Source: an uncultured Actinomycetota bacterium (GTDB taxonomy: Bacteria; Actinomycetota; Actinomycetes; Prado026). From it: 64,000 nt of DNA. The stretch is from contig CAWFVK010000009.1 of assembly GCA_963819215.1 (NCBI GenBank), positions 209,267 through 273,266 on the forward strand, read 5' to 3'. The position numbers were made by a program, and so were the translations under genes. The stretch's first letter is position 1. Each line of letters starts with the position of its first letter. Positions 19,364 through 64,000 of this stretch are shown here, one piece after another. The notes beneath the pieces are model-generated. The model was given only the letters and a program-made list of their open reading frames with translations. It had not been told where the DNA came from and searched no databases.

Positions 19364-19367
19364 GTCG

Positions 19368-45872: not shown

Positions 45873-45935
45873 CGTCGAAGAATACTACTAAACAAATAGG
45901 ATTTATCGGTAAACGGACGGTGAAATCTGTCATTT

Positions 45936-45955
45936 CGTGACGGTGCGTGACGGTG
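45936..45955. repeat. Tandem cgtgacggtg (two copies) plus a related cggacggtga at 45914-45923, in an AT-rich junction
   Basis: Read directly from the sequence, inside the roughly 265-bp conspicuously AT-rich spacer 45873-46137 between pth and the first glycan-cluster gene. Confidence 0.75.
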
Positions 45956-46137
45956 AATTTCCACCCCGTAGGTCTTTTGGCCACAAGCATCGGACGTTCG
46001 GACGATTCCTTGCTCCTGCTATGGATTCGGCTCTGGGGGTCTCCCTAGAGTACGAACCCTGATCCCGTTCATGGAGGGGTGCAGACCGAGTGGTCAGCAT
46101 CTGAGCGAGGTCACTGGGGTGGGAAGTCGAGGGAAAT

Positions 46138-47637
46138 ATGTCGGTCTTGGACCAGCGGCCGGGTACCGCTCTTGGTCACGCAGGGCTCGTGACCACCACA
46201 CTGACCGATCGCCCCGCCGAGCTCGCCGTCGTCCGCCCCCGCCGGGCCTCGTGGCAGCGTGGATATGTCGTCCGCTGTATCGGTGTCGACGCCGTGGCCG
46301 CGATCATCGGCGGGACCAGCGCCTACGTCCTGCGCTGGGGCGACACCCCGAAGACCCACTACCTCGTCATCAACGCACTGCTGCCCTTCATCTGGGTCGC
46401 CGCCATCGCGCTGAGCCGGGCCTACGAGCCCCGCTTCCTCGGGGCCGGCTCCGAGGAGTTCCGCCGGGTGGGTCGGGCCGCCGTGGGGCTCATCGCCGTC
46501 GTCTCGGTCATCTCCTACGCCTTCAACCTCGACCCCGCCCGCCGCTACGTCCTGATCGGCATCCCGATCGCAGCCGGTGTCGACCTGCTTGGTCGGTACC
46601 TGCTGCGGCACTGGCTGCACACGCGCCGGGCCAAGGGGCAGTACCTGGATCGGGTGGTCGTCGTCGGCCACGAGATCCCCGTGCTCGACCTCCTGCGCCG
46701 CCTCGGCGACGAGTCGTGGCACGGCCTGCACGTCGTGGGTGCCTGTCTGCCGGTCGGCGGCAACCGGCCCGCACTGCTCGACCGAGGGGTCACCGTCGTC
46801 GGCGGGTTCGACTCCGTGGCCCGTGCGGTACGCCTGCACGACGCTGACGTCGTCGCCGTTCTTGCCAGCCCGGACCTCGGCCCGGAGCAGCTGCGCCAGC
46901 TTGCCTGGGACCTCGAGCCGACCGGCGCCGACCTCATGGTCGCCCCTTCGCTGGTCGAGGTCGCCGGTCCACGGCTCTCGATCCGCCCGGTCTCCGGACT
47001 GCCCCTGCTCCAGGTCGAGCAGCCGCAGTTCACGGGCATGCGCCGCATCGTGAAGTCCACCTTCGACCGCACGACGGCCGCGGTTGCCGTCCTGCTGCTC
47101 TCGCCCGTGCTGCTCCTGATCGCGCTGGCGGTGCGCCTCACCAGCTCCGGCCCGGCGTTCTTCCGCCAGGAGCGCGTCGGGCGTGATGGCAAGACCTTCA
47201 CGATGATCAAATTCCGCACCATGGTGGTCGACGCCGAGAGCCGCCGCGAGCAGCTCCTCGAGCTGTCCGACCGTGACGGCCTCATGTTCAAGATGCGCTC
47301 CGACCCGCGGATCACCAAGATCGGCTCGCTGCTCCGCAGGTACTCCCTCGACGAGCTCCCGCAGCTGATCAACGTGGCGCGGGGCGACATGTCGCTGGTC
47401 GGCCCTCGCCCGCCGCTGCCGTCCGAGGTCGCGGAGTATGCCGCCGACGTCCGCCGCCGGCTGCTCGTTCGTCCCGGGCTCACCGGGCTGTGGCAGGTCA
47501 GCGGCCGCGCCGACCTCTCTTGGGAAGAGTCCGTGCGACTCGACCTCCGCTACGTGGACAACTGGTCGCTCGCCAGCGACCTGCTGATCCTCTGGAAGAC
47601 CGCTCGCGCTGTCCTCACGGGCAGCGGAGCCTACTGA
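46138..47637 (+). CDS. Polyprenyl-phosphate sugar-phosphate transferase (WbaP/CpsE-type initiating enzyme)
   Basis: Four or five N-terminal TMs, a central domain, and the C-terminal bacterial sugar-transferase signature ..RRIVKSTFDRTTAAVAVLLLSPVLLLIALAVRLTSSGPAFFRQERVGRDGKTFTMIKFRTM..DELPQLINVARGDMSLVGPRP. Intact at 499 aa. Confidence 0.88.
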   Translation: MSVLDQRPGTALGHAGLVTTTLTDRPAELAVVRPRRASWQRGYVVRCIGVDAVAAIIGGTSAYVLRWGDTPKTHYLVINALLPFIWVAAIALSRAYEPRFLGAGSEEFRRVGRAAVGLIAVVSVISYAFNLDPARRYVLIGIPIAAGVDLLGRYLLRHWLHTRRAKGQYLDRVVVVGHEIPVLDLLRRLGDESWHGLHVVGACLPVGGNRPALLDRGVTVVGGFDSVARAVRLHDADVVAVLASPDLGPEQLRQLAWDLEPTGADLMVAPSLVEVAGPRLSIRPVSGLPLLQVEQPQFTGMRRIVKSTFDRTTAAVAVLLLSPVLLLIALAVRLTSSGPAFFRQERVGRDGKTFTMIKFRTMVVDAESRREQLLELSDRDGLMFKMRSDPRITKIGSLLRRYSLDELPQLINVARGDMSLVGPRPPLPSEVAEYAADVRRRLLVRPGLTGLWQVSGRADLSWEESVRLDLRYVDNWSLASDLLILWKTARAVLTGSGAY

Positions 47638-47709
47638 TCCATCCATCCAGCAGACCGGCAGCGGCAAGGACGCCGCAAGGCCCGGTCCGTCCGACCATGA
47701 CCTCAGGCA

Positions 47710-47751
47710 GTCACCCTGGGTGACCATCCCGCTTAGGATGGTGACCCTCCC
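47710..47751. promoter_or_regulatory. Palindrome plus direct repeats upstream of cysQ; candidate operator
   Basis: gtcaccctgggtgac (47710-47724, a perfect 6-3-6 palindrome); hairpin ccatcc-cgctta-ggatgg (47724-47741); direct repeat ggtgaccatccc / ggtgaccctccc (47719-47730 and 47740-47751, 21-bp spacing). Confidence 0.4.
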
Positions 47752-47791
47752 GAACTGTCGAGCCGGGGATCCGAACCGAAGGGAGCGCAGC

Positions 47792-48545
47792 GTGCAGACC
47801 ACGACGACGGACGCGCAGCTCGCGACCGACCTCGCCGCGGCCGCGGGACGCCTCCTGGAGCACGTCCGCAACGAGCACGCCGGCCTGCCGCAGGACGAGC
47901 TCAAGGCGCTGGGGGACCGGTCCGCGCAGGACTTCCTGGCCGCCGGGCTCGCCGAGGCTCGACCCGATGACAAGGTCCTCTCGGAGGAGGCCTCCGACGA
48001 CCGTCGGCGCCTGACCGCGGACCGCGTCTGGATCATCGACCCGCTGGACGGCACCCGCGAGTTCTCCGAGGGTCGCCATGACTGGGCCGTGCACGTGGCG
48101 CTGTGGCAGCGAGGCACGCTCGTCGCCGGGGCGGTCGCGCTGCCGGGCTTGAGCACCGTGCTCGCCACCGACCCTGCGCCGGTGCTGCCCGCACCCCACG
48201 GTGGCCGGCTCCGGATGGCCGTCAGCCGGAGCCGTCCGCCGGCGCTGGCCACCCGCTCGCCGAGCGCCTCGACCTCGAGCAGGTCCCGATGGGTTCCGCC
48301 GGCTACAAGGTCGCGGCCGTGATCAGGGGCGAGGTCGACGCTCTACGTCCACGCCGGCGGCCAGTACGAGTGGGACAGCGCGGCCCCGGTCGCGGTCGCC
48401 GTCGCCGCCGGCCTGTTCACGTCCCGGATCGACGGCTCGCCGTTGCTCTACAACCAGGAGGAGGTCCTGCTGCCCGGACCTGGTCGTGTGCCGGCCCGAG
48501 CTCGCCCAGCAGGTTCTCGCAACGATCGCGGAGGTAACGGCGTGA
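47792..48545 (+). pseudogene. cysQ: 3'(2'),5'-bisphosphate nucleotidase (PAP phosphatase) with three frame changes (about 48247, 48341 and 48478)
   Basis: GTG 47792 follows GAAGGGAG and gives ..KVLSEEASDD..RVWIIDPLDGTREFSEG..WAVHVAL. The following pieces are ..[18 protein letters not shown] / [31 protein letters not shown] / [22 protein letters not shown]. Confidence 0.8.
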
Positions 48546-49512
48546 CGCCGGCCGAGAGCACGTCCACAGCCGACGCTGACACGGGAGGTGCGGGCGGCGC
48601 GGGCAACGACTACCAGCCTGTCGCAGCTACGCACGCTGGAGTCCGAGTCGATCCACATCATCCGCGAGGTCGTCGCGGAGATGCGAGCGCCCTGCGCTGC
48701 TGTTCTCCGGCGGCAAGGACTCCATCGTGATGCTGCGGCTCGCCGAGAAGGCGTTCTGCGCCGGCACCGGTGCCCGTTCCCGATCATGCACGTCGACACC
48801 GGCCTGAACTTCCCCGAGGTCATCGCCTTCCGCGACAAGCGGGTCGCCGAGCTCGGCGTGACGCTGATCGTCGCGTCGGTGCAGGAGGCCATCGATCGCG
48901 GCGAGGTCCGCGAGGAGCCCAACGGGTCCCGCAACCGGATCCAGACGCCGGTGCTGCTCGCGCATGCCGAGGCGCAACCGCTTCGACGCCCTGTTCGGGG
49001 GCGCCCGTCGCGACGAGGAGAAGGCCCGCGCCAAGGAGCGCGTGTTCTCCTTCCGCGACGAGTTCGGCCAGTGGGACCCGAAGAACCAGCGGCCCGGAGC
49101 TCTGGAGCCTCTACAACGGCCGCGTCCACAACGGCGAGAGCATCCGGGTCTTCCCGCTCTCGAACTGGACCGAGCTCGACATCTGGCAGTACATCGAGGC
49201 CGAGAGCATCGCGCTGCCGTCGATCTACTTCGCCGCACGAGCGCGAGGTCGTACGACCGCGACGGCATGATCATGGCGGTCAACGAGTTCTCGCCGCCCC
49301 GGGCCGGCGAGGAGGTCTTCACCGCGACGGTGCGCTACCGCACCGTCGGCGACGCGAACCTCACCGCCGCGGTGCGTTCGGACGCCGACACGCTCGCGAA
49401 GATCATCGACGAGATCGCCGCGACCAGGATCACCGAGCGCGGCGCCACCCGCGGCGACGACAAGGTCAGCGAAGCGGCCATGGAAGACCGCAAGAAAGAG
49501 GGCTACTTCTGA
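48542..49512 (+). pseudogene. cysD: Sulfate adenylyltransferase subunit 2; about 7 frame changes
   Basis: The pieces are [21 protein letters not shown] / [24 protein letters not shown] / [33 protein letters not shown] / [40 protein letters not shown] / [33 protein letters not shown] / HEREVV / [18 protein letters not shown]. Confidence 0.88.
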
Positions 49513-50761
49513 TGGACCTGCTCCGCTTCGCCACCGCCGGCTCCGTCGACGACGGCAAGAGCACCCTCATCGGTCGCCTGCTCTACGACACCAAGGCGAT
49601 CTTCAGCGACCAGCTCGAGTCGGTCGAGCGCACCAGCCGCGAGCGTGGGGACGAGTACACCAACCTCGCGCTGCTCACCGACGGCCTGCGCGCCGAGCGC
49701 GAGCAGGGCATCACCATCGACGTCGCCTACCGCTACTTCGCGACGCCCAAGCGCAAGTTCATCATCGCCGACACCCCCGGGCACATCCAGTACACGCGGA
49801 ACATGGTCACCGGCGCCTCCACCGCCGACCTCGCGATCATCCTGGTCGACGCCCGCAACGGACTGGTCGAGCAGAGCCGCCGGCACGCGTTCCTGACCAC
49901 GCTGCTGCGTGTCCCGCACCTCGTGCTCTGCGTCAACAAGATGGACCTCGTCGACTACTCCGAGACGGTGTTCGAGTCGATCAGGGCCGAGTTCACGGCG
50001 TTCGCGACCAAGCTCAACGTCCCGGACCTCACCTTCATCCCGGTCTCGGCGCTGGCCGGCGACAACGTCGTCACCCGCAGCGACAAGATGCCTTGGTACG
50101 ACGGCCCGAGCCTGCTGCACCACCTGGAGAACGTGCACGTCGCCTCCGACCGCAACCTCGTCGACGTCCGGTTCCCCGTGCAGTACGTCATCCGGCCGAT
50201 GCAGTCCTCGCACCCGGACTACCGCGGGTACGCGGGCCAGGTGGCCGGTGGCGTGATGAAGCCGGGCGACGAGGTCACCGTCCTGCCCGTCCGGGTTCAC
50301 CTCCACGGATCAAGGCCATCGACACCGCCGACGGCCCCGTGGCGGAGGCCTTCGCCCCGATGTCCGTCACCGTCCGGCTCGAGGACAACCTCGACGTCTC
50401 GCGCGGTGACATGATCTGCCGGCCGCACAACATGCCGGCCGTGACCCAGGACATCGACGCCATGGTCTGCTGGATGGACTCCGCGGTGTCGATGCGCCCC
50501 GGCGCCAAGCTCGCCATCAAGCACACGACCCGGACCGCCCGCGCTCTGGTGAAGGACATCCAGTACCGGCTCGACATCAACACGCTGCATCGCGACGACA
50601 CGTCGTCCGAGCTCGCGCTCAACGAGATCGGCCGGGTGCGGCTGCGCACCACGCAGCCGCTGCTCGCTGACCCCTACCAGCGCAACCGGACCACCGGCGG
50701 CTTCGTGCTCATCGACGAGGCCACGAACCGGACGGTCGCAGCGGGGATGATCACCGAGTGA
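49512..50761 (+). pseudogene. cysN: Sulfate adenylyltransferase subunit 1 (GTPase), with no fused APS-kinase domain; one frameshift near 50290
   Basis: Contains [24 protein letters not shown] (G1), DTPGH (G3) and NKMD (G4). After ..GDEVTVLP the frame switches to ORF 50093-50761 (..[36 protein letters not shown]). The next gene starts 15 nt later. Confidence 0.9.
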
Positions 50762-50775
50762 GCGTGAGGTAGGGC

Positions 50776-51441
50776 ATGCGCACGCTGCCCGCGTCGGTCC
50801 AGCCCGTGGCGGACTCCGTCTTCGCGGCCCGCCGAGCCTGGTACCGCTCGCGCTACCCGCGGCTCGAGATCGGCGAGGGGGTCATGTTCATCGGCCGGCT
50901 GCGCCTTCGCGGCGGCACCCGGCTCGTCCTCGGTGACAACGTCCGGATCCGGCAGAACGTCATCGTCAACGGCGGCGGCACCGTCACTGTCGGGCACGAC
51001 ACCCTGCTGAACGGGTGCTGGATCGGATCCGCCAGCTCGGTCGACGTCGGGCCCTGGTGCCTGGTCAGCGACTGCAACATCTCGGACACCGACTACCACA
51101 ACTTGCTCCCGGCCCAGCGGCACCTCGCACTCACCTCCAAGGCGGTGGCTCCGGTCACGCTCGGACGGAACGTGTGGGTGGGCGCGCGCGCGATCGTCCT
51201 CAAGGGGACCAGCATCGGGGACGACTCCGTGGTCGGCTCCGGAGCCGTCGTCCGAGGGACGGTCCCGGCGGGTGTGATCGTGGCGGGGAACCCGGCTGAG
51301 ATCGTCCGCACCTTCACAGCCGAGGAGCGGACGGCCGAGGGCGACGACCTCCGGGCAGCCGAGAGGTCAGACCTGGATCGGCCGAACGGTCGGAACAGGG
51401 AGACCGCGGGCACGGCAGGGCCCTCCGGGCCGTTACCGTAA
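50776..51441 (+). CDS. Hexapeptide-repeat (left-handed beta-helix) acyl/acetyltransferase
   Basis: Contains VLGDNVRIRQNVIVNGGGTVTVGHDTLLNGCWIGS..VTLGRNVWVGARAIVLKGTSIGDDSVVGSGAVVRGTVPAGVIVAGNPAEIV. Confidence 0.8.
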   Translation: MRTLPASVQPVADSVFAARRAWYRSRYPRLEIGEGVMFIGRLRLRGGTRLVLGDNVRIRQNVIVNGGGTVTVGHDTLLNGCWIGSASSVDVGPWCLVSDCNISDTDYHNLLPAQRHLALTSKAVAPVTLGRNVWVGARAIVLKGTSIGDDSVVGSGAVVRGTVPAGVIVAGNPAEIVRTFTAEERTAEGDDLRAAERSDLDRPNGRNRETAGTAGPSGPLP

Positions 51442-51520
51442 GTACACCCTCCGTCTCGGGGCGCGTGCGGGAAGTGAACGTGCATCGACGGGCGGACGAC
51501 CTTTTGACGATGGGGAGCTC

Positions 51521-53152
51521 ATGCCTGCAGACCAGCCGAGCCGCGAGCCTGCCAATGCGGACCGCATTGACCTCCTCGGCATGTTCCGGCGGCGCGCGTG
51601 GGTGCTCGTCCTCTTCGTGGTGCTCGGCGTTGGCCTTGGCCACGTCCTGTCGGGCAAGCTGCCCGTCAAGTACTCGTCCACCACGTCCGTCCTCGTGTCG
51701 CCGATCGGCCTCCCGACGCTGCAGAGTGGTTCGACACTCGCTCGCGCCGAGGCGCCGCTGAACCTGGAGACGGAGTCGCAGGTCGTGCTGAGTGAGCCGG
51801 TGGCCACCGCGGCTGCGGCCCTCGCCGGCGACAAGCGCCCGATCGCCACCGTGATCAGCGAGATGGACGTCCAGGTCCCCCCGAACACGACCGTGCTGAG
51901 CATCACCGCGACCACCAGCAACGCAGCGCACGCCCAGGCCTTGTCGGCGGCGTTCGCGAAGGCGTACATCGACGACCGCAACACGACCGCGCAGGCAGCC
52001 GTGACCAGTGCCACGACGTCACTGACCGCCCAGCTCGACGCGCTGAACAAGCAGCTCCAGGCGGTTTCCAGCCAGATCGCGACGATCCCGGCCGGCAACG
52101 CGGACCGCACCTTCGCCGAGGCTCAGCAGCAGATCCTGGTGACCCAGGTGGCCGCGGTTTCCAGCGACCTCACCCGGCTCAAGTCCACCCAGATCACGCC
52201 GGGCAACGTGCTCGTCGCGGCGACCCCGGGGGAGGCGCCCGGCCTGCCTCTTGGCAAGCTGGCCACCCTCGCGGGCGGCCTGCTCGGTCTGGTCCTGGGC
52301 TTCCTGGCCATGCTCCTGCTCGAGCGTCTCGACCGCCGGCTGCACCGTGGCATCGACGTGGAGCGGCTCGCCGGAGTGCCCCTGCTCGGCGAGCTCCCCA
52401 AGATCAAGCGCAAGGACCGCAGCCTTCCGGTCACCGACGCACTCGGCGACGGCTACGGGCCGATCCGCAACGAGGTCGCGGCCCGGCTTCCAGCAGGCGG
52501 CGGCGTGCTGCTGGTGGTGCCCGTCGGCTCCGGCGGAGCCATCGCCACCACCAACCTCGCGGCGGCGTTCTCGCGGGCCGGTGAGCTTGCCGTCCTGGTG
52601 TGCGCCGACCTGTCGGACGCCGGAGCGGCCGACACCCTCGGCATCGCGCCGGGTGTGCCCGGGCTCGCTGATGCGCTTCGTGGCGATGTCGCCACCGTCC
52701 CGTTGCTCCCGTGCGACGTCGACGGCCTGTCCGTCCTGGCGCCGGGTACCGACATCGAGTCGGCCCGCGACCTCCTGCAGGGGCCACGGTTCGTCCGGGT
52801 AGTCACCGACGCCTCCGTTGGCAGCGACCTCCTGCTCGTCCAGGCACCCTCGAGCACCACCGGCTCCGACGCCCAGACGATGGCTCGGGCCGCCTCTGCC
52901 GTCGTCCTGGTCGTCGAGGTCGGCCGCACCGACCGCTCGGACCTGGTCCATGCTGCTGCCCAGTTCGACCGCATGGGTGCCCGTGTTCTCGGGGCGGTTG
53001 CGCTCCCCACGGGCTCGGAGGCCAGGAACGCCGCGCGTCCTGCCTCACGGCGCGCACCCGCGATGGCACCCGCAGCCGAGACCATCCTCAGCGAGGGTGG
53101 CGGCCGCATGCACGTCAGCGAGGCTGAACGGGCTGGACGGTCCGCTCCGTGA
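51521..53152 (+). CDS. Polysaccharide co-polymerase (Wzz/PCP-2-like) with a C-terminal P-loop-like domain lacking a canonical Walker A
   Basis: TM1 (WVLVLFVVLGVGLG), a periplasmic coiled region and TM2 (LAGGLLGLVLGFLAMLLL). The ATPase-like domain follows. Where a BY-kinase would have GxGKS/T it reads VVPVGSGGAIATTNLA. It also has VLVCADLSD and DLLLVQAPS, and no C-terminal Tyr cluster. Confidence 0.7.
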   Translation: MPADQPSREPANADRIDLLGMFRRRAWVLVLFVVLGVGLGHVLSGKLPVKYSSTTSVLVSPIGLPTLQSGSTLARAEAPLNLETESQVVLSEPVATAAAALAGDKRPIATVISEMDVQVPPNTTVLSITATTSNAAHAQALSAAFAKAYIDDRNTTAQAAVTSATTSLTAQLDALNKQLQAVSSQIATIPAGNADRTFAEAQQQILVTQVAAVSSDLTRLKSTQITPGNVLVAATPGEAPGLPLGKLATLAGGLLGLVLGFLAMLLLERLDRRLHRGIDVERLAGVPLLGELPKIKRKDRSLPVTDALGDGYGPIRNEVAARLPAGGGVLLVVPVGSGGAIATTNLAAAFSRAGELAVLVCADLSDAGAADTLGIAPGVPGLADALRGDVATVPLLPCDVDGLSVLAPGTDIESARDLLQGPRFVRVVTDASVGSDLLLVQAPSSTTGSDAQTMARAASAVVLVVEVGRTDRSDLVHAAAQFDRMGARVLGAVALPTGSEARNAARPASRRAPAMAPAAETILSEGGGRMHVSEAERAGRSAP

Positions 53153-55577: not shown

Positions 55578-56806
55578 CCACCCGTCGCGAGTACCTCCTC
55601 GAGGTGGCGGGGCTGATGTGGCCTGGCGCCGACGTCTCGATCGTCAAGACCCCGCTTGGCTCGGCCAACGCACGGGTCCACGGCCCCGGCCAGGTTCGCC
55701 AGTTCGTCCTCGTGCCGTCGGCGAACGACCCCCGGCTCGTGCTGCCGGCCGGCGCCCCCGCGGCGGCCGCCCACGCGGCTACCGGCTTCACCGGGCACCG
55801 ATCTGGCTCCGCTGGGCTGCGCGGCAGGGTGCTCTCCGGCACGCTGCGTTCCGGCGTGGGCGACCGGGTGCTCCGCGATCGCCTCGTCATCAGGGGATCC
55901 GACGGACTCGACACGCATCTGTCCACCGTGCTCGGCACCGAGGTCCTCATCAGCATGCATGTCGGTCCGGCCCGAGCGAATCGCAAGCCCGTCCTGCAGC
56001 TCACCTCGACCGACGGCAGGATCCTTGGCTACGCCAAGATCGGGTTCAACCCGTTGACGGCTGAGCTGGTGGACGCGGAGGCCGAGGCCCTCGCGGCCGT
56101 GGGGAAGGCGGGTTTGCGGACTATCGTCGCGCCCGAGCTGCTGCACCACGGCCACTGGGGCGAGCTCGCCATCGTCGTGCAGTCGCCGCTGCCAGCGGCG
56201 AGCTCCGTCGCCGCCTCACCTGCGGCGATGGTCTCAGCGATGGTCGAACTCGCGCGCAGCTCCGAGCTCCCCGAGTCACCGCTCATCGATGCTCCGTACG
56301 TGCGACGGCTCTCCGCCGCGCTCGCCGACCTCGGCCCGGACGGCAACCGGCTCTCGCTCGTGGTCGAGAGCCTGGTCGCGTTGCCCGAGCACGTCCCGGT
56401 GGCCTTCGGGGCCTGGCACGGCGACTGGACCACCTGGAACTGCGCCGATGCCGGTGGTGGACGCCTGCTTGTCTGGGACTGGGAACGGTATGCCGCCGGA
56501 GTGCCCATCGGCTTCGATGCGCTCCACCAGCGCCTGCAGTCCACGGTGCACGGGCTTGCCGTCATCGAGCCGGCGCACGCCACCGCGGTGATCGAGGCCG
56601 CCCCCGAACTGCTGCGGCCGTTCGGTGTGCCAGCCGACGTCGCAGGCATGGTCGCGGTCCTCTACCTCTGCGAGATCGCCTGCCGGTACCTCACGGACCG
56701 TCAGGCCGACGCCGGCGGCCGCCTCGGTCGCGTCGGCGAGTGGCTGGTGCCTGCTGTCGAGCCCTATGTCGCAGGGCTCACTCACCGAGGGAGAACGCCC
56801 GCATGA
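55574..56806 (+). CDS. Aminoglycoside/choline-kinase-fold phosphotransferase family protein
   Basis: The catalytic-loop-like AFGAWHGDWTTWNC (HGDxxxxN) is followed by LLVWDWERYAAGVPIGFDALH (the metal-binding D-x-E region). There are ATGA overlaps on both sides. Confidence 0.55.
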   Translation: MTTRREYLLEVAGLMWPGADVSIVKTPLGSANARVHGPGQVRQFVLVPSANDPRLVLPAGAPAAAAHAATGFTGHRSGSAGLRGRVLSGTLRSGVGDRVLRDRLVIRGSDGLDTHLSTVLGTEVLISMHVGPARANRKPVLQLTSTDGRILGYAKIGFNPLTAELVDAEAEALAAVGKAGLRTIVAPELLHHGHWGELAIVVQSPLPAASSVAASPAAMVSAMVELARSSELPESPLIDAPYVRRLSAALADLGPDGNRLSLVVESLVALPEHVPVAFGAWHGDWTTWNCADAGGGRLLVWDWERYAAGVPIGFDALHQRLQSTVHGLAVIEPAHATAVIEAAPELLRPFGVPADVAGMVAVLYLCEIACRYLTDRQADAGGRLGRVGEWLVPAVEPYVAGLTHRGRTPA

Positions 56807-57666
56807 GCCCGAGCATCCCGCTCCCCGTCCAGCGCGTCGTGCGGCGCGCCTCGCGGCTGGGCGGCCAGGTGACGGCCTCGGCCCGGATGGAGCCCTCGTT
56901 CCTGCTGGTCGGCGCGCAGCGGTGCGGCACCACCTCGATGTACAAGACCATCACGGCTCACCCGCAGGTGCTGCCAGCGGTGCTGCACAAGGGCGTGCAC
57001 TACTTCGACACGGGCTACGCCAACGGGCCGTCCTGGTACCGCGGGCACTTTCCGCTGAAGGTCAGCGCCAAGCGGCTCTCCTCGCGGCTGGGCGCGAAGG
57101 TCCAGACCGGGGAGTCCAGCCCGTATTACATGTTCCACCCACTGGCCGGCCCGCGGATCGCGAAGGACCTGCCAGACGTCCGCCTTGTCGTCCTGCTTCG
57201 TGATCCGGTCGAGCGCGCCTACTCGGCCTTCACCCACGAGAGCGCCCGCGGGTTCGAGACCGAGACCTTCGAGCGCGCCCTCGAGCTCGAGGACGAGCGC
57301 CTCGCCGGCGAGGAGGACAAGCTCCGCAACGACCCCACGTACCGAAGTCATGCGCACCAGCACAATGCCTACGTGACCCGCGGGCGTTACATGGAGCAGC
57401 TCGAGCGGCTCGAACAGACCTTCGGGCGTGACCGGTTGTTCGTCGTCGACTCAGGTGACCTCTTCGCTGACGCAGGCCCCACGCTGGACGGGCTCTTCGC
57501 CTACCTCGGGCTGGAGCCGTGGCGGCCGGAGAGCTTCGAGAAGCACAACGCCCGACCGCGCACCTCGATGTCACCGGAGTTGTACGACAAGCTGCGCGCC
57601 GGGTACGAGCCGTATGACGCCCGGCTCGCGGACTGGCTCGGGCGCCCCCCGAGCTGGCGGCGATGA
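56803..57666 (+). CDS. Sulfotransferase (Sulfotransfer_1-like) with PAPS-binding motifs
   Basis: 5'-PSB-like FLLVGAQRCGTTSMY and 3'-PB-like VVLLRDPVERAYSAF. Confidence 0.8.
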   Translation: MSPSIPLPVQRVVRRASRLGGQVTASARMEPSFLLVGAQRCGTTSMYKTITAHPQVLPAVLHKGVHYFDTGYANGPSWYRGHFPLKVSAKRLSSRLGAKVQTGESSPYYMFHPLAGPRIAKDLPDVRLVVLLRDPVERAYSAFTHESARGFETETFERALELEDERLAGEEDKLRNDPTYRSHAHQHNAYVTRGRYMEQLERLEQTFGRDRLFVVDSGDLFADAGPTLDGLFAYLGLEPWRPESFEKHNARPRTSMSPELYDKLRAGYEPYDARLADWLGRPPSWRR

Positions 57667-59316
57667 CGCAGGACACGACCAACGCGGACAACGCCACCGG
57701 GGTCAGCTCGGCCGGCGTCCGACAGCTTGCACGTCGCAGCTCGGCCAGCCTCTTCGGTTCCGCCGTCACCGCGGTCGCCCAGCTGGGACTCTCGGTTGCG
57801 GTCGCGCGTGGCCTCACCCGTGAGGATGCCGGTCTCTTCTTCTCGGCCACCTCACTGTTCCTGATCATCAGCACCGTCGTGAAGCTCGGTACGCCCACCG
57901 GCCTGGTGTGGGCGTTGAGCGGGCAGCGGGCGCGCGGCGAGCTGAGCCGGATCAACCCGACGCTCCGCATCGCGCTCCTCCCGGTCCTGATCGCTGGCGT
58001 CGTCGCCGGGCTCGCGATGCTTCTGCTCGCGGGCAACCTGGCCACCTGGCTGCTCGACAGCACGGCGAGCCCGCTGACCCATCAGCGCCTCGAGACCTCG
58101 CTGCGCATCATGGCCGTCTTCGTGCCGGTCGCGGCGATGTACGACGCCGTGACCGCGGCCAGCCGAGGCGCCGGCGTCATGCGTCCCACCATCGTCATCG
58201 AGCGGCTGGCCCGCCCGATCCTGCAGTGCCTGCTCGTGGTCGCCGCTGCGCTTGCCGGCTCCCTTGTCGGCGCCTCACTCGGCTGGGTCCTCCCGTATGC
58301 GGTGGCGTTGGTGCTGATGATCCGGATGACGCGCAGGATCGTCACGAAGGTGACCGCGGGCCAGGGGGCGCTGGTCGCTCCCGCCGAGATCGAGGCGCGC
58401 GGACGACGACCCGGCTGAGGTGGTCGCCGTCGAGAACGCTGCTGCCGGCGGCTCCACGGGGAGCGAGCGTCCCGGGGAGGGTCGATGGTTCTGGGCGTTC
58501 ACGGCGCCGCGGGCGGTCGCGAACCTAGGGCAGATCGTGCTGCAACGGCTCGACATCGTGCTCGTCGGTGTGCTGCGCGGACCCAAGGACGCCGCGGTCT
58601 ACGCAGCAGCGACGCGCTTCCTCGTGCTGGGCCAAGCCGCGGCGCTGTCCATCTCGCTCGCCGTCCAGCCGAACCTGGGTGAGGCGATCGGCGCGGGAGA
58701 GCCGCTCAAGGCCAAGAACATCTACCGCACAGCCACGACCTGGCTCATCGTGGTGACCTGGCCGATCTACCTGTTCTCGATGGTCGCCCCCGGGCTGATC
58801 CTGAGCGTGTTCGGGCGCGCTTACTCCGCAGGGGCTCCGGTCATCGTGCTGCTCTCCGCCTCGATGCTCGTCGCCACCGGCTGCGGCATGGTCGACATGG
58901 TGCTGAACATGGCCGGGCGCAGCTGGTGGAACCTGTTCAACGTGATGCTCGCCGTCGTGGTGTTCGTCGTCCTTGAGCTGATCCTGATTCCGACGCACGG
59001 CATCGTCGGTGCAGCGGTCGGGTGGTCGGTGGCGATCCTGGTGACGAATCTGGTGCCGCTGGGGCAGGTCGGGCTGATCCTGCACCTGCACCCGTTCGGC
59101 CGGTCGACCTTCACCGCCGCCGGCTGGGCTGCCATCGCGGCCGGCCTGCTGCCGTGGTTGGTGCTGCGCTGGGGTTCACCGAGCAACGTCGAGACGATTG
59201 CCGTGCTCATCGCGAGTGCGCTGGTCTACGCCGTCGGGCTGTGGCCGCTGCGCGCGGTGCTCGCCCTCGACAAGATGCCCGTGCCTGGCAAGCTTCGACG
59301 GATGCTCGCCCGCTGA
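57663..59316 (+). pseudogene. MOP-superfamily polysaccharide flippase (Wzx-like), split by one frameshift near 58400
   Basis: ORF 57663-58418 (6 TMs) and ORF 58420-59316 (..RWFWAFTAPRAVANLGQIVLQRLDIVLVGVL.. plus 6-8 TMs) are the two halves of one transporter. The second frame is open upstream across the stop. Confidence 0.75.
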
Positions 59317-59332
59317 TTGAACGGGGCCGTGG

Positions 59333-60259
59333 TCAGATACCGCGGCCGCGTTTGTGCAGCACTTCGAGCACCCTGGGCGCGGACACGATGCCGCTGGCCA
59401 CGGCCACGGCTAGCACGCCACGCGGCTCCTTGTAGTTGTGCCGCAACGACTTTCCGGCCGTTCGCAGCGCGTCGCCCCGCCGGCCGAGCGCCGCCTGGTC
59501 AAAGGCGATCTGCCCGAGCAGTCGGCCGACGCCCACCCCCGAGGTCCAGAGGTCTGGGTGGTGCTCGAGCATCCACTCATGCGCGGCGAGCTTGGTCTCC
59601 CAGCGCCGCGAGAAGAACGACGTCTGTCCCCACAGGACCCGCACCAACGGCTGGTCCACGTGCACGATGGGATGGCGGGCCGACGCGCGGAGCAGGATGT
59701 CCCAGTCCTCGCACATGCTTCCCGGGATCGTCTCGTCGAGCAGCCCGATGCCGTCGACCAGCGCCTCGCGACGAGCCATGAAGGTCGATGAGTGGAGCAT
59801 GGCCAACCGGCTCGCAAGGAGCTCGGGATAGGTGATGCGTTCGCGTCCAGCGAGCCGATCGGTCTCGTGGTCCTGGAACACGACCCTGATGCCGGTGGAC
59901 GCGAACTCCGCCGCCGGCTGGGCCTGCAAGGCCGCCACCTGGGTCTTGAGCTTGCCGGGCAACCACTCGTCGTCGTCGTCGCAGAACGCCACGAGCTCGG
60001 CAGACGTCGACAGGATCGCCGTGTTCCGGGTGCCGCAAAGGCCTTGCGTCCGGGTGTTCTCCAGGATGGTGAGTGGCAGGCCCTCGAGGTCCGCCACCAG
60101 CGTGGGGTCGGGCTCGGTGTGGTCGAACACGACAACTGCCTCGAGCCGGCCCGGGTACTCCTGGGCGCCGATGGCACGAAGTGCCTTGCGCAGGAGCTCC
60201 GGCCGGTCACGCGTGGGGAGCAGCACCGCGACGTCTGGCCAGGTGGCCGGCTCAGCCAT
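59333..60259 (-). CDS. Family-2 glycosyltransferase
   Basis: Contains VAVLLPTRDRPELLRKALRAIGAQEY..VVVFDH..GLCGTRNTAILSTSAELVAFCDDDDEWLPGKL. Intact at 308 aa. Confidence 0.85.
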   Translation of the reverse strand: MAEPATWPDVAVLLPTRDRPELLRKALRAIGAQEYPGRLEAVVVFDHTEPDPTLVADLEGLPLTILENTRTQGLCGTRNTAILSTSAELVAFCDDDDEWLPGKLKTQVAALQAQPAAEFASTGIRVVFQDHETDRLAGRERITYPELLASRLAMLHSSTFMARREALVDGIGLLDETIPGSMCEDWDILLRASARHPIVHVDQPLVRVLWGQTSFFSRRWETKLAAHEWMLEHHPDLWTSGVGVGRLLGQIAFDQAALGRRGDALRTAGKSLRHNYKEPRGVLAVAVASGIVSAPRVLEVLHKRGRGI

Positions 60260-61337
60260 CCGCTGCCCTGCCGGTCCCGGGTCGGTAGCCGAGCAGTGCG
60301 GCCACCGGGGCGGTCAGCACGGTCACCATGCGACGCTGCCGGCTCGGCATGAGCGAGCGCCACTTCTGGTCATTGGCGACCTCGATGTGACCGGTCTGGT
60401 AACGCATCGGATTGCCTGCGACCTGGTGCGAGACACCGAGGTCAACACTGCTCGGCTGGGCTGCCGCGAGTGTCTGTTCATTGACGGGCACGTCGGCGAA
60501 CTCAAGGATCCCGGCCAGGAGCTCGCGTGGGTCCTCGACGAAGTCCTCGTACCGCACCAGCCTGGTCTTGGTGCCTGCGAGCCGCGGGATCTCCAGCAGG
60601 ACGTTGTGGCCCGACCACAGCACGGCCACGTGGGCGGGAGAAAAGGTCGGCATGTACGAGGTGTCGAGCTGGCCATCGGCATCAGCGTCGTCGCCTCGCA
60701 ACGGCTGACGGACAGCCTCGGGTCGAGCCACCACCCTGGTCCAGGAGAATGCGACGCCGCGGCTGTCTCGTACCAGGTGCAGCAGTCGCACCCGAAGGTC
60801 GGGTGAGGTTCGCAGGCAGTAGGCAAGCGACGTGCTCTTGCTGGAGTCCACGATGACCCGGCTGCCGGTGACGGTTCGAGCAGCGCGGTACACGGCCGCG
60901 AAGGCGGCGACGTATTCGTCCAGCTCGGCACTGAACTGCCCACGAGGGCGTAGCAGTCGGGGGATGTTCTTGACGTCATCGATGCGGCGCCCGAGCTCGG
61001 CCATCCGGGCGGTGTCGACGTTCTGCCAGCCGCCGAAGGCTTCGGCGCCGACCGCCGTCCAGAACGGGCAGGTGTGGAAGGTCTCGCCGCAGCCGCAGAG
61101 CTCGTCCTGCTCGATGCCTCGGCTCCAGAGAAACATGACCTCGCCGAGGGAGCACACGGAGTCGACTTCGCCGAGCAGGCGCTCGATCAGCGTTGACCCA
61201 CTCCGCCCGATGCCGCCGAGGTACAGGAGGTCGACGGGCGCATGCGAAGCGATGGGGGAGGGCGTGCGCCCGGTGTGGTGCGTGCCGCGCGAGGGCGCGC
61301 GGCCAGCGTCGCTCGGGGACACTGCCGTCATGTCCAC
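60252..61337 (-). CDS. Sulfotransferase family protein (Sulfotransfer_3-like)
   Basis: 5'-PSB-like LLYLGGIGRSGSTLIERLL and 3'-PB-like LLHLVRDSRGVAFS. It overlaps the downstream GT2 gene by 8 nt. Confidence 0.75.
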   Translation of the reverse strand: MDMTAVSPSDAGRAPSRGTHHTGRTPSPIASHAPVDLLYLGGIGRSGSTLIERLLGEVDSVCSLGEVMFLWSRGIEQDELCGCGETFHTCPFWTAVGAEAFGGWQNVDTARMAELGRRIDDVKNIPRLLRPRGQFSAELDEYVAAFAAVYRAARTVTGSRVIVDSSKSTSLAYCLRTSPDLRVRLLHLVRDSRGVAFSWTRVVARPEAVRQPLRGDDADADGQLDTSYMPTFSPAHVAVLWSGHNVLLEIPRLAGTKTRLVRYEDFVEDPRELLAGILEFADVPVNEQTLAAAQPSSVDLGVSHQVAGNPMRYQTGHIEVANDQKWRSLMPSRQRRMVTVLTAPVAALLGYRPGTGRAADG

Positions 61338-61368
61338 CGCCTCGCCGTCATCCAGTCAATGGTAGCTC

Positions 61369-61410
61369 GTCCGATCGGACCATATGTCGTTCTTCGTACC
61401 GATCTGGACC
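61369..61410. promoter_or_regulatory. Palindrome and direct repeat upstream of the sulfotransferase-GT2 operon
   Basis: gtccgatcggac (61369-61380, a perfect 12-bp palindrome) and the repeat ccgatcggacc / ccgatctggacc (61371-61381 and 61399-61410), in a lower-GC spacer. Confidence 0.35.
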
Positions 61411-61496
61411 GGCCTTTACGCAAGACTGGCACCAGAAAGTCAGCGCCGTCCGCCGCTCGGCGCACCCATGGACTGCCCCTCGGCACGCAAGTACGT

Positions 61497-61526
61497 CAAC
61501 CCGGCTGGGATCACCCAGCCGGGTTG
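61497..61526 (-). terminator. 13-bp perfect hairpin spanning the GH26 stop codon
   Basis: caacccggctggg-atca-cccagccgggttg. On the minus strand it includes the last codons ..NPAG* of the GH26 gene. There is no U-tract. Confidence 0.4.
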
Positions 61527-62611
61527 AAGTACGGCTGCGACGCGATGCTGCCCATGGTTCGGAGGTCAGCTGGTGTTCCGCGCAAGGACCAGTGCCTGAT
61601 CCGGCCGTCCTTCGCGACGTCGCTGTCGAAGTACACCGCGGCCTTGATGCTCGGGTTCGCTTGGATCCACGCGGCTCCGGCGGTGAGCCAGGCGCTCCGC
61701 GAGCCCGGCGTCGGGTTCTGCGTCCCGAACTCGCCGAACATCAGCGGCTTGTCGTGTTCGGCCGCGAACTTCATGAACGACGCCGACACCTGCGCGAGCG
61801 AGGCGGTCCGTGGATCCGGCGCGTAGGAGTCCGTGCAGATCCAGTCGACCTCGGAGTCACCCGGGTAGTAGGCCGGCGCCGTCCCGTTGTCGAAGCCGGA
61901 GGCGAGCGGGCACCAGACCCACCCGACGTTGGTGGCTCCAACCTCGGTGAAGATCGAGCGGATGTGCGTCCAGGCGGCGATGAAGTCCTGTGGCGAGCCG
62001 ACTTCGGCCTTGAGATTCGGCCGGTCCATCTCCCAGCGCCACCGCAGCAGCACAGGCGCGCCGAGGGCCTTCACCGCGGTCGCGCGCTCGCGGATCATCG
62101 TGTCGTACTTGCCTGCGGTGATGTCCGTCGTCTTGGTACCGGCCCAGGAGAGCAGGAGCTGCGAGCCGCGTGCCGCGACAGCTTCATCGAAGGCGGACGG
62201 GAATGGATCGGTCCAGGTGTGGAAGTCGTGGACCACGGTGAGCTTGTGCCCGAGGTCGGCCTCGTACGCATTGAGCGCAGCGATGCGACCGGCCTCGGTG
62301 AAGACCGTGGGCTGCACCCATGCACCGAGCCAGGCTCCCGTGGCCGGCGGTACGGGAGCCGGCGGAACGCTCGAGCTCGGTGTCGGCGAGGGCGCTGTCG
62401 TCGCCGCACTGGCGGATGTCGTCGGTGCCGCCGAGTTGCCGGTGGAGCTCGACGACAGGTGCAGCGCAATCAGCACCACCGCCACCACGACCACGACGGT
62501 GGCCGCGAGTGCCGCAACGAGCCTGGGTCTTCCCCCCATGACGCTCCCAGCTGGTTGGCCGATGCACCGGAGGCAAAGGTTCCGTAAGGATAGACTCGCG
62601 AACCAGCTCAC
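61511..62611 (-). CDS. Membrane-anchored glycoside hydrolase family 26-like glycanase
   Basis: N-terminal TM, a Ser/Pro/Thr linker, then ..VLLRWRWEMDRPN.. (acid/base Glu context) and ..KPLMFGEFGTQ.. (nucleophile Glu context). Also WVWCPLASG and YYPGDSEVDWICTDSY. Confidence 0.65.
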   Translation of the reverse strand: MSWFASLSLRNLCLRCIGQPAGSVMGGRPRLVAALAATVVVVVAVVLIALHLSSSSTGNSAAPTTSASAATTAPSPTPSSSVPPAPVPPATGAWLGAWVQPTVFTEAGRIAALNAYEADLGHKLTVVHDFHTWTDPFPSAFDEAVAARGSQLLLSWAGTKTTDITAGKYDTMIRERATAVKALGAPVLLRWRWEMDRPNLKAEVGSPQDFIAAWTHIRSIFTEVGATNVGWVWCPLASGFDNGTAPAYYPGDSEVDWICTDSYAPDPRTASLAQVSASFMKFAAEHDKPLMFGEFGTQNPTPGSRSAWLTAGAAWIQANPSIKAAVYFDSDVAKDGRIRHWSLRGTPADLRTMGSIASQPYFNPAG

Positions 62612-62697
62612 TCGTTCCGCTGTTCGTGCCGCAGCCGGTGGTCCCGCTGTCGGTCTGTCAGCCGTCCATCAGCCTCATGCACAGTGTTGAGGAGAGC

Positions 62698-63489
62698 ATG
62701 CTCGTCGACAGCAAACGGCTGGTGTTCGTTGCTGGTCTGCACCGCAGCGGCACCACCGCGCTGGCCCGGATGCTTGCCGACCACCCGCAGATCAGCGGCC
62801 TGGAGAACACCGGAGTACGTGAGGACGAGGGCCAGCACCTCCAGGACGTCTACCCCGTCGGACAGACCTACGGCGGCCCCGGCCGGTTCGCCAGGAATCC
62901 GCACGCGCACCTCACCGAGAGCTCACCGCTGCTGACCTCGGACGCGGCGGACCGCATGCTGGCCGCCTGGCTGCCGTACTGGGATCTCAACAGACCCTTC
63001 CTGGTGGAGAAGTCGCCACCGAACCTCGTGATGGGCCGTTTCCTGCAGGCGGCCTTCCCTGGCAACGCTTTTGTCGCTGTCGTTCGACACCCCGTCGTCG
63101 TCGCGCTGTCCACCAAGAAGTGGGCGCCGCGGACCACCCTGGAGCAGCTCGTCGAGCATTGGTTCATCGCGCACGACACGCTGGTTGCTGACGCGCCGTC
63201 GATCCAGCGACTCCTGGTGCTGCGCTACGAGGACCTCATGGCAGAGCCCGTCCCCGAGCTCGAGCGAGTCCGAGCATTCATCGGGCTCGACGGCGCGATC
63301 CCGGCGGACCGCGTCGATGCCTCGCGCAGTAGCAGGTACGAGCAGCAATGGGACGACCTCGCCACCGGGAGCTGGTTGAAGCGGCGTCAGCGCGCGGCCA
63401 TTGAACGCCGCTTCGCCGACCGCGCTGCGGCCTACGGGTACGACATCAGCGACCTGCGGTCACGGGCTCCATGGACTTGGCCGTACTGA
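62698..63489 (+). CDS. Sulfotransferase family protein
   Basis: MLVDSKRLVFVAGLHRSGTTALARML (5'-PSB-like) and FVAVVRHPVVVALS (3'-PB-like). Alternative in-frame starts are at 62626 and 62677. Confidence 0.7.
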   Translation: MLVDSKRLVFVAGLHRSGTTALARMLADHPQISGLENTGVREDEGQHLQDVYPVGQTYGGPGRFARNPHAHLTESSPLLTSDAADRMLAAWLPYWDLNRPFLVEKSPPNLVMGRFLQAAFPGNAFVAVVRHPVVVALSTKKWAPRTTLEQLVEHWFIAHDTLVADAPSIQRLLVLRYEDLMAEPVPELERVRAFIGLDGAIPADRVDASRSSRYEQQWDDLATGSWLKRRQRAAIERRFADRAAAYGYDISDLRSRAPWTWPY

Positions 63490-64000
63490 CAGCCTTCGAA
63501 CCCCGCCGCCACCTGAAGCGGCTGGGCTGAAGCACCGCCCCGACGTGACCGCTCGGGGAGACGGCCGATCGCGTCGCCGCACCGGCGACCTCGCGCAGCA
63601 GGGTGCGATGGGCCCTGGTGACGAGGACGACGCCGTCGGCCTGATCGTTGAGCCCGCCGGTGTAGGACTTCCGTTCAGGACCGAGCACGAGCAGGTAATC
63701 CGCCGTGCCGCGGACGAGGTCGAACCGGCGGCGCATGGTGACGTCGTTGACCGGTGCGCGCGCGCCGTCGAGGAGCTGCCCCTGGCCAAAGACACGCATC
63801 GGCCCGGAGTTTTCAGGGGATGGTCCAGCGATGACTGCCGAGTCAGCCCCCGTCGACCAGGTACTAAGCGCCCCACGCCGGCTGGCCGCGTTCAGCACGA
63901 TCTCGGCTACGCCTTCGCCGTTCGCCAACCGTCCTTCCGTGAGCACGCTGGTGTCGTCGAGTCGGGCACCCGGCCACGCCGCAACCGTGACGTCGTAGCC
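63446..64000 (-). CDS. C-terminal part of a second P-loop-like (BY-kinase/CpsD-like, degenerate) protein; the 5' end lies outside the window
   Basis: The frame is open to the window edge. ..RRRFDLVRGTADYLLVLGPERKSYTGGLNDQADGVVLVTRAHRTLLREV..GHVGAVL aligns by eye with the C-terminal domain of the 51521-53152 protein (..DLLLVQAPSSTTGSDAQTMARAASAVVLVVEVGRTDRSDL..ARVLGAVAL). Confidence 0.4.
   Translation of the reverse strand, partial: GYDVTVAAWPGARLDDTSVLTEGRLANGEGVAEIVLNAASRRGALSTWSTGADSAVIAGPSPENSGPMRVFGQGQLLDGARAPVNDVTMRRRFDLVRGTADYLLVLGPERKSYTGGLNDQADGVVLVTRAHRTLLREVAGAATRSAVSPSGHVGAVLQPSRFRWRRGSKAVSTAKSMEPVTAGR

Follow-up and report, generated by a model that had tools for sequence, protein, structure and literature searches.

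A wps-1-type Wzx/Wzy gene cluster with three sulfotransferases in an uncultured actinomycete

We examined a stretch of 64,000 nt from an uncultured Actinomycetota bacterium (contig CAWFVK010000009.1, assembly GCA_963819215.1), referred to as the window, in which the region 45873-64000 carries a glycan gene cluster with three sulfotransferase genes and the sulfate-activation genes cysQ, cysD and cysN. The cluster is real and functionally coherent, and it is a member of a recently described actinobacterial cluster type, wps-1 of Actinoplanes missouriensis, with a different set of accessory genes. We consider it likely that the locus is a wps-1-type Wzx/Wzy pathway for a short-repeat heteropolysaccharide of the cell surface, most likely sulfated, which is decorated in the cytoplasm before export. 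An account made earlier from the letters of the sequence alone (the sequence-only reading) had also taken the region for a Wzx/Wzy glycan locus serving sulfation. The observed gene identities, synteny, conservation of motifs for binding 3'-phosphoadenosine 5'-phosphosulfate (PAPS), co-occurrence of sulfate genes in 49 of 67 related loci and a sulfotransferase-glycosyltransferase fusion in Mumia bear this out, with sulfation among the purposes of the locus.

The window has a G+C content of about 70-74% and its lists of open reading frames (ORFs) are crowded with spurious frames; genes were mapped by frame analysis of the G+C content at third codon positions (GC3) together with profile searches. 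All genes named in the sequence-only reading, from the initiating transferase to the GH26 protein and including the three sulfotransferases (ST1 to ST3), were recovered where that reading had placed them by Pfam and NCBIfam profile searches and structure searches. The features are as follows; EPS stands for exopolysaccharide and PCP for polysaccharide co-polymerase.

45261-45872: pth, upstream of the cluster
45873-46137: pth-wbaP intergenic spacer, 265 bp, AT-richer than its surroundings (sequence read directly)
46138-47637, plus strand: WbaP-like initiating polyprenyl-phosphate hexose-1-phosphate transferase (Bac_transf 4.5e-69; above the cutoff of NCBIfam TIGR03025, EPS polyprenyl glycosylphosphotransferase, with 417.9 bits vs 295.55)
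47720-48545, plus strand, ends approximate: cysQ-like 3'(2'),5'-bisphosphate nucleotidase, i.e. phosphatase of 3'-phosphoadenosine 5'-phosphate (PAP), frame-broken (Inositol_P, profile match region 47588-48322)
48588-49512, plus strand: cysD, sulfate adenylyltransferase small subunit, frame-broken (PAPS_reduct fragments in two frames; tblastn)
49509-50761, plus strand: cysN, sulfate adenylyltransferase GTPase subunit, frame-broken (GTP_EFTU and GTP-eEF1A_C in different frames)
50776-51441, plus strand: hexapeptide-repeat O-acetyltransferase of the WbbJ/WcaF/maltose-acetyltransferase type (Pfam Hexapep; NCBIfam matches to WbbJ, maltose O-acetyltransferase and WcaF, each below its cutoff)
51521-53152, plus strand: PCP/Wzz polysaccharide co-polymerase (Wzz 1e-4 and NCBIfam matches)
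53149-54150, plus strand: DUF3048 protein (Pfam DUF3048 and DUF3048_C)
54147-55577, plus strand: Wzy-type repeat-unit polymerase (Wzy_C 7.8e-11)
55574-56806, plus strand: predicted APH/fructosamine-3-kinase-fold kinase, 410 aa, WpsI counterpart (alignment, AF2 model, Foldseek)
56803-57666, plus strand: sulfotransferase ST1, WpsH counterpart (Sulfotransfer_3 2e-11, Sulfotransfer_1)
57663-59316, plus strand: Wzx flippase of the MOP superfamily, split in two ORFs (Polysacc_synt and MatE on the two halves)
59333-60259, minus strand: GT2 glycosyltransferase, WpsA counterpart (Glycos_transf_2)
60252-61337, minus strand: sulfotransferase ST2, WpsB counterpart (Sulfotransfer_3 6e-11)
61511-62611, minus strand: GH26-family glycanase, membrane-anchored, WpsE counterpart (CtLic26A match 3e-21)
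62626-63489, plus strand: sulfotransferase ST3, accessory, in few related loci (Sulfotransfer_3 2.5e-26)
63446-64000, minus strand: partial ORF running off the window end (coding-like GC3)

An initiating phosphoglycosyltransferase, Wzx, Wzy and PCP were all found, which is the full Wzx/Wzy set, wzx being legible once one frameshift is corrected. The minus-strand genes for GH26, ST2 and GT2 converge on the plus-strand run, and ST3 diverges from them. Five gene junctions are 4-nt start/stop overlaps, exactly as first read (GTGA at 53149; ATGA at 54147, 55574, 56803 and 57663), and the cysD stop and cysN start share a TGATG junction, which together argues for translational coupling. The ST2 stop and the GT2 start overlap by 8 nt.

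The wps-1 cluster of A. missouriensis (AMIS_7280-7380) consists of wpsA-K, coding for GT2 (A), sulfotransferase (B), GT26 (C), DUF4262 (D), GH26 (E), methyltransferase (F), Wzx (G), sulfotransferase (H), protein-kinase-like (I), Wzy (J) and Wzz (K) proteins (Tezuka & Ohnishi, Appl Environ Microbiol, June 2026, PMC13390465). Deletion of any of these genes but wpsD distorts the sporangia, including both sulfotransferase genes and the kinase-like gene, and deletion of the adjacent sulfate adenylyltransferase/APS-kinase gene AMIS_7390 (APS, adenosine 5'-phosphosulfate) severely impairs the formation of sporangia; the authors propose a sulfated EPS made via Wzx/Wzy and state that chemical verification is missing (PMC13390465). 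The window shares with wps-1 the collinear run Wzz(K)-Wzy(J)-kinase-like(I)-sulfotransferase(H)-Wzx(G) (51521-59316), in the order seen in the Actinoplanes loci L006 and L007. Both clusters also have GH26 (E), a second sulfotransferase (B) and GT2 (A), and both carry a sulfate-activation gene beside the Wzz gene. The window proteins are 35-57% identical to their counterparts in congeneric Actinoplanes loci with exactly the published order, with 42%, 45% and 53% for GH26, ST2 and GT2 against the proteins in the WpsE, WpsB and WpsA positions. The window differs from wps-1 in its additional WbaP primer, hexapeptide acetyltransferase, DUF3048 protein and third sulfotransferase, and in having CysQ-CysD-CysN in place of the Sat-like/APS-kinase gene. 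It lacks GT26 (WpsC), the methyltransferase (WpsF) and DUF4262 (WpsD), and tblastn with the Actinoplanes GT26 and methyltransferase as queries found nothing in the window. Its host, moreover, unlike A. missouriensis, is uncultured, and nothing indicates that this actinomycete forms sporangia. The sequence-only reading had held that sulfated polysaccharides from a dedicated Wzx/Wzy locus are not characterised in actinobacteria; this no longer stands as regards genetics, since the homologous wps-1 has been described (PMC13390465), but it does as regards the product, which is still chemically uncharacterised.

To survey the distribution of this cluster type, as the sequence-only reading had suggested, we scanned one genome per species with the kinase as marker, and took gene counts from 68 full 20-kb loci of different species; counts out of 67 leave out one further duplicate locus, and the sample is heavy in Micromonosporaceae. 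The kinase marker is present in at least 541 species genomes, the carriers being Micromonosporaceae, Streptosporangiales, Geodermatophilaceae, Propionibacteriales and one metagenome-assembled genome (MAG) of Solirubrobacterales, and in some families the locus is nearly ubiquitous. The core is nearly invariant in the full-length loci: PCP, Wzy and ST1 occur in all 68, Wzx in 67, GH26 in 65, ST2 in 59 and GT2 in 57, and GT26 (38 of 68) and the methyltransferase (35 of 68) are accessory genes. A collinear core of Wzz-(DUF3048)-Wzy-kinase-ST1-Wzx plus GH26, ST2 and GT2 recurs in Micromonospora, Mumia, Actinoplanes and the cultured strain GCA_000719025.1 (L008). In Micromonospora (L001) the order is sulfotransferase, Wzz, DUF3048, Wzy, kinase, sulfotransferase, Wzx and GH26, and in Mumia (L004) it is Wzz, Wzy, kinase, sulfotransferase and Wzx, followed by a sulfotransferase-GT2 fusion. 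L008 has the same WbaP-CysQ-CysD-CysN head as the window, after which come PCP, DUF3048, Hexapep, Wzy, kinase, sulfotransferase and Wzx, with GT28C-GT2-sulfotransferase and GH26 reversed. The L008 locus further contains three PCP/Wzz-like paralogues (3663-5603, 7237-8631 and 19029-20531; 646, 464 and 500 aa), against one in the window.

ST1, ST2 and ST3 each score above the Pfam gathering cutoff (Sulfotransfer_1/3). The strings first read as 5'-phosphosulfate-binding (5'-PSB) and 3'-phosphate-binding (3'-PB) motifs are present in all three proteins, are kept across homologues and align to solved sulfotransferases. All of 120 ST1 homologues keep GxQRCGTTS, E104 and RDPxERxxS unchanged, the motifs GRSG[ST]T and VRDxRxVAxS of ST2 are conserved in 61 loci, and two ST3 homologues in L014 and L035 (56-58% identical) keep both PAPS motifs. 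ST1 has about 6,000 detectable homologues with 60-73% identity across Actinomycetes. It matches the bacterial sulfotransferase structure PDB 3rnl (8e-19) and the heparan-sulfate (HS) 3-O-sulfotransferases (3-OSTs; 1e-11), and its 5'-PSB, 3'-PB and E104 all align with the HS 3-OSTs, E104 standing opposite the Glu of the HS 3-OST-1 'EKTPAY' segment, which we take to be the catalytic base. ST2 is similar to the sulfotransferase domains of CurM and OLS and to the tyrosylprotein sulfotransferases (TPSTs), and ST3 weakly to TPST2; aligned to TPST and CurM, neither protein gives a match strong enough to place the catalytic base. In Mumia sp. Pv 4-285 (CP162023, L004 13258-15198) a single 646-aa protein fuses an ST2-type sulfotransferase to GT2, a Rosetta-stone link of sulfation to glycan assembly.

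We find it hardly credible that the three enzymes act on a non-glycan acceptor (lipid, metabolite or protein tyrosine) beside an unsulfated polysaccharide locus, with cysDN as a housekeeping assimilation operon. Such acceptors would suit the best solved-structure matches of ST2 and ST3, which are polyketide (CurM/OLS) and protein-tyrosine sulfotransferases, and the lack of an APS kinase in the window. However, ST1 sits between the kinase and Wzx with 4-nt overlaps, is present in every one of the 68 loci, resembles carbohydrate sulfotransferases and keeps the Glu read as catalytic, ST2 is fused to GT2 in Mumia, and three different kinds of sulfate gene co-localise in 73% of the loci.

This last figure refers to the 49 of 67 related loci which have a sulfate-activation or PAP-phosphatase gene within 10 kb of the core. 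Given that a multi-megabase genome typically has one or two genes of these kinds, the co-location amounts to a very large enrichment. A Sat-like/APS-kinase gene is present in 38, CysQ in 14 and CysDN in 9 of the 68 loci; two loci (L010 and L080) carry both CysQDN and a Sat-like/CysC gene. The Actinoplanes-type gene beside Wzz (L006 5149-6657, Actinoplanes sp. NPDC051470, and 37 further loci) has a complete APS-kinase domain, while its sulfurylase match is limited to an N-terminal PUA-like part and its whole-protein score lies far below the cutoff of the bifunctional enzyme. Judged by these domain matches its main activity may be that of an APS kinase, and because the APS-kinase domain is complete and the sulfurylase match partial, PAPS formation suggests itself as the locus-specific need.

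In the window the cysQ copy, which has the IMPase-family fold, is 54% identical to the intact L008 CysQ, whose top NCBIfam match is TIGR01331 (CysQ) with 97 bits vs a cutoff of 229; we call it CysQ-like on the strength of this below-cutoff match and its position beside cysDN. The window cysD is 51-62% identical to L008 CysD (tblastn), and two parts of the window cysN are 81% and 67% identical to the respective parts of L008 CysN (420 aa); the intact L008 CysD and CysN score above the NCBIfam cutoffs. CysN ends without a fused APS-kinase domain, and tblastn with an actinobacterial APS-kinase domain detected no APS kinase (CysC) in the 64-kb window (best E 0.56). PAPS can therefore not be made from the locus alone, which would provide APS synthesis and PAP removal. 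The claim that the cluster has its own sulfate-activation genes thus stands as far as cysQ-cysD-cysN are present, but an APS kinase is missing from the 64 kb and all three genes are frame-disrupted.

The frame disruption of cysQ, cysD, cysN and wzx had gone unremarked in the sequence-only reading. Aligned with the intact L008 orthologues, cysQ has at least 3 frame shifts, the Inositol_P profile reaching the N-terminal half only, and cysD needs at least 5 frame changes. In cysN two indels lie within 30 nt near 50285-50300, and in wzx one indel between about 58380 and 58470 yields the ORFs 57663-58418 and 58420-59316, to both of which intact 515-aa Wzx homologues align, in different frames. The essential genes glmU and prs (region 41800-44340) need at least 6 frame changes each, hopping through all three frames, with their Pfam domains appearing as partial matches on ORFs in different frames, and GC3 frame switching is also frequent over the first 45 kb. 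Since glmU and prs are also frame-broken, we read the frameshifts as an assembly artefact, and the simplest reading for cysQ, cysD, cysN and wzx is assembly errors in the MAG of an uncultured actinomycete rather than gene decay. For the phosphomannomutase encoded in the window, the nearest relatives (at most 86% identity) come only from metagenomes and from MAGs that bear the labels Frankiales, Motilibacteraceae, Jiangellaceae or Mycobacteriales.

The conserved genes glmU, prs, cysD, cysN and cysQ are densely hit by indels, which are few in 51.5-64 kb: at least about 8 lie in 48.2-49.5 kb vs roughly one in 51.5-64 kb. Homopolymer density is equal in the indel-dense and indel-sparse regions, and the uneven spread may reflect a mixed-strain consensus in a long-read metagenome assembly. 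The same unevenness, together with four genes that are unreadable in a single frame, could be taken for a decaying cluster in which cysQ, cysD, cysN and wzx are true pseudogenes and the polymer is either not made or made without sulfate. We regard this as very unlikely: besides the broken frames of glmU and prs and the frame switching across the first 45 kb, the affected genes are 51-81% identical to intact orthologues and show no stop-rich decay away from the shift points, and the source looks like a contig from an uncultured MAG, where consensus errors in conserved genes are to be expected.

The kinase-like protein 55574-56806 had no Pfam match, and PDB and NCBIfam sequence searches gave nothing useful. 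Its family numbers more than 2,000 proteins, PF01636 being detected in some of them, and a 30-sequence alignment shows invariant K155, E169, H282-G-D284, N289 and D302 (Lys, Glu, HGDxxxxN and D-x-E motif). An alignment-based AF2 model (pLDDT 91.6) gave FN3K, APH and the macrolide 2'-phosphotransferases (Mph) as top Foldseek matches, with probability 1.00 and TM scores of 0.5-0.6 on the target. According to this model the protein is an APH-fold kinase, predicted to be cytoplasmic, whose structural neighbours phosphorylate sugar hydroxyls; the APH-fold kinase of the sequence-only reading is thereby upheld. The first 100-130 residues or so (55574-55900) form a confidently modelled N-terminal extension before the kinase N-lobe. 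The protein exceeds the APH and FN3K structures by about 100 residues, and the query-normalised TM score is lower than the target-normalised one, so the extension is probably not covered by the matches; the Actinoplanes homologue has a weak DUF2017 match in its own extension. A role as substitute APS kinase was set aside as less likely, since a genuine APS-kinase domain coexists with the kinase in Actinoplanes-type loci and its structural neighbours act on small molecules, at sugar or alcohol hydroxyls which they phosphorylate.

The PCP has two predicted transmembrane segments. Its Wzz match (1e-4) is below the gathering score, NCBIfam matches are to EpsG, tyrosine-autokinase and chain-length-determinant families, and it is 33-37% identical to the Wzz proteins of Micromonospora, Mumia and Actinoplanes. 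A C-terminal P-loop domain resembling bacterial tyrosine kinases (BY-kinases; 52520-53010) lacks the Walker-A Lys (VGSGGAIATT), a degeneracy common to the homologues, and the protein has no C-terminal tyrosine cluster; judging from these residues it looks like a conserved non-catalytic kinase-like domain. The DUF3048 protein, which has a homologue in 22 of 68 related loci, starts with a signal/lipobox-like sequence (VLATAC) followed by a Pro/Thr-rich linker and is predicted to be extracytoplasmic. Wzy is 46-62% identical to the Wzy proteins of related loci, and GT2 53-64% to its counterparts in Actinoplanes and L008 and in the Mumia fusion.

For the GH26 protein the full ORF (61511-62611) had no Pfam match at 0.01, and the trimmed ORF matched Glyco_hydro_26 (PF02156) with E 0.015 (15.1 vs 20.2 bits for gathering), relatives being above gathering. 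Its true start is probably the Met at 62539. The protein (61511-62539) is nearest to the solved GH26 lichenase CtLic26A of Clostridium thermocellum (Lic26A; 3e-21 over 248 residues) and to GH26 beta-1,3-xylanases (1e-5), while similarity to mannanases is marginal. The Glu residues in 'WEMD' and 'GEFG' align to those in 'HEAN' and 'AEFA' of CtLic26A, presumably the catalytic pair, in keeping with the GH26-like glycanase first read here. It is 42-56% identical to the GH26 proteins of related loci, and an N-terminal transmembrane helix followed by a Ser/Thr/Pro linker indicates that its site of action is outside the membrane. For WpsE the published discussion stresses mannanases (PMC13390465); the matches of the window protein hint at a polymer backbone that is beta-glucan-like rather than mannan.

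From the gene content we infer the substrates, the sequence in which the steps occur and that the product bears sulfate, as follows. The WbaP-like enzyme would put hexose-1-phosphate on undecaprenyl phosphate and GT2 would extend the repeat unit, to which a second glycosyltransferase outside the window may contribute. The three soluble sulfotransferases would then move sulfate from PAPS to the lipid-linked repeat, the APH/FN3K-fold kinase would phosphorylate a sugar hydroxyl and the hexapeptide transferase would O-acetylate. CysD/CysN would raise local APS and CysQ clear inhibitory PAP, APS being converted to PAPS by a cysC product presumably encoded elsewhere. Wzx would flip the decorated unit and Wzy polymerise it, with the PCP and its putatively non-catalytic P-loop domain setting chain length, and the membrane-anchored GH26 glycanase and the DUF3048 lipoprotein may trim or release the polymer outside the membrane.

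Several points weigh against this pathway. As the sequence stands, cysQ, cysD, cysN and wzx are not translatable, and indels are far denser in cysQ/cysD than in the remaining cluster. Only one glycosyltransferase is found beside the primer, whereas a further enzyme of GT28C or GT26 type occurs in 54 of 67 relatives; the window, as said, has no APS kinase. Orthology to A. missouriensis was inferred via congeneric Actinoplanes loci, not from the AMIS sequences, and sulfate has been shown chemically on no actinobacterial polymer from a wps-1-type locus (stated explicitly in PMC13390465).

A different kind of product, likewise sulfated and made via Wzx/Wzy, would be a wall-linked secondary cell-wall glycopolymer or lipoglycan anchor instead of a free EPS. 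The position of the locus beside the conserved glmU-prs-rplY-pth, which recurs in other orders, its near ubiquity in some families and the altered sporangium architecture, not a slime phenotype, of the Actinoplanes mutants (PMC13390465) are consistent with a wall polymer. No LCP-family ligase or wall-linkage gene was seen, however, in the window or the related loci examined, and the PCP and the secreted glycanase resemble EPS and capsule loci. On balance we judge a wall-linked product unlikely and retain the heteropolysaccharide pathway described above.

Loci of comparable content are known from other bacteria. The Synechocystis xss cluster, a Wzx/Wzy/PCP cluster for the EPS synechan, has two sulfotransferases of distinct subfamilies, and synechan was identified as sulfated by composition and gene disruption, the individual sulfotransferases not having been assayed in vitro (Maeda et al., eLife 2021, PMC8205485). 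Compared by description, the window shares with xss the Wzx/Wzy/PCP route with more than one sulfotransferase; in contrast, xss is cyanobacterial and plasmid-borne, has eight glycosyltransferases, and the paper describes no kinase, GH26 or PAPS-pathway genes (PMC8205485). In the sulfated-capsule locus of Vibrio sp. KMM 8419, whose product structure was solved by nuclear magnetic resonance, second copies of cysD, cysN and cysC accompany three sulfotransferases, and PAPS genes with sulfotransferases in a polysaccharide locus are called a hallmark of sulfated polysaccharide synthesis (PMC11641403). The window likewise combines cysD/cysN with three sulfotransferases inside a polysaccharide locus, but the Vibrio locus exports through an ABC transporter (Kps) without Wzy, includes the APS kinase that the window does not have and belongs to a Gram-negative host. 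Dedicated sulfate activation is also paired with PAPS-dependent carbohydrate or glycolipid sulfotransferases in the rhizobial nodPQ-nodH and the mycobacterial CysDNC-CysQ-Stf systems, where CysQ removes PAP; sulfate is there transferred to lipo-oligosaccharides or glycolipids instead of a glycan polymerised by Wzy. Both have the APS kinase fused to CysN (NodQ and CysNC, respectively), in contrast to the window, where CysN has no kinase domain.

Bacterial sulfated polysaccharides are regarded as rare except in cyanobacteria and a few marine Gram-negatives, and to our knowledge no Actinomycetota member of this class has been defined chemically; searching the literature for sulfated EPS of actinomycetes yielded reviews only. 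Our survey extends a genetic report on a single species to a conserved core in hundreds of species, including easily cultured Micromonospora, which usually lies beside a PAPS-pathway gene. Whether and why actinobacteria make sulfated glycans thereby becomes a question that can be tested in tractable strains. Beyond the literature our analysis adds the breadth of distribution, the tight link to PAPS genes, the invariant kinase-sulfotransferase pair and a GH26 that is lichenase- rather than mannanase-like, and it brings two unexplored enzymes into view within a Wzx/Wzy pathway, the FN3K/APH-fold kinase and the lichenase-like GH26. As for the window, it supplies a further example, laden with errors, from an organism that is uncultured, and does not constitute a new system. 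Tentatively, and with some doubt, one may go further and see in the locus type an unstudied, phylum-wide class of actinobacterial surface polymer, sulfated as well as phosphorylated, with a general role in the envelope beyond sporangia, the invariant kinase then representing a new family of lipid-linked-glycan kinases obligately paired with an HS-3-OST-like sulfotransferase, to which it is translationally coupled.

Upstream of the cluster lie pth, rplY, prs and glmU, and a tRNA-Gln (41660-41735) is found just before glmU. The AT-rich junction that had been read behind this block corresponds to the 265-bp pth-wbaP spacer, which probably serves the plus-strand operon as promoter and 5' leader. 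The spacer matched no Rfam family, and a riboswitch or leader RNA was dropped as a candidate after this result and the lack of a conserved element in comparison with the equivalent spacer of L035. The visibly lower G+C content ascribed to the cluster does exist, but the drop is small (0.695 vs 0.70-0.74 upstream). The idea of an insertion is weak, as rplY-pth lies directly beside the cluster also in a Streptosporangiales MAG (L035 129-1486) and in Blastococcus and Modestobacter MAGs (L073 at about 20461-21033 and L078 at about 19652-21048). This adjacency in several orders shows the position to be old and conserved and the locus not to be a recent island; a genomic island was accordingly rejected on both grounds.

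At the other end, the partial ORF 63446-64000 shares 44 nt with the 3' end of ST3; Pfam gave no match for it, and 89 related loci contained no homologue. As all conserved cluster components lie inside the window, the expectation that the cluster continues beyond it found no support, though the second glycosyltransferase missing from the window could lie beyond position 64,000. Further upstream, the core-genome context (5979-10844, 28621-30522 and 34013-35209) includes the phosphomannomutase, a PGI-like SIS protein and phosphomannose isomerase, and a protein O-mannosyltransferase and an RpfB-like DUF348-G5-transglycosylase are also encoded upstream.

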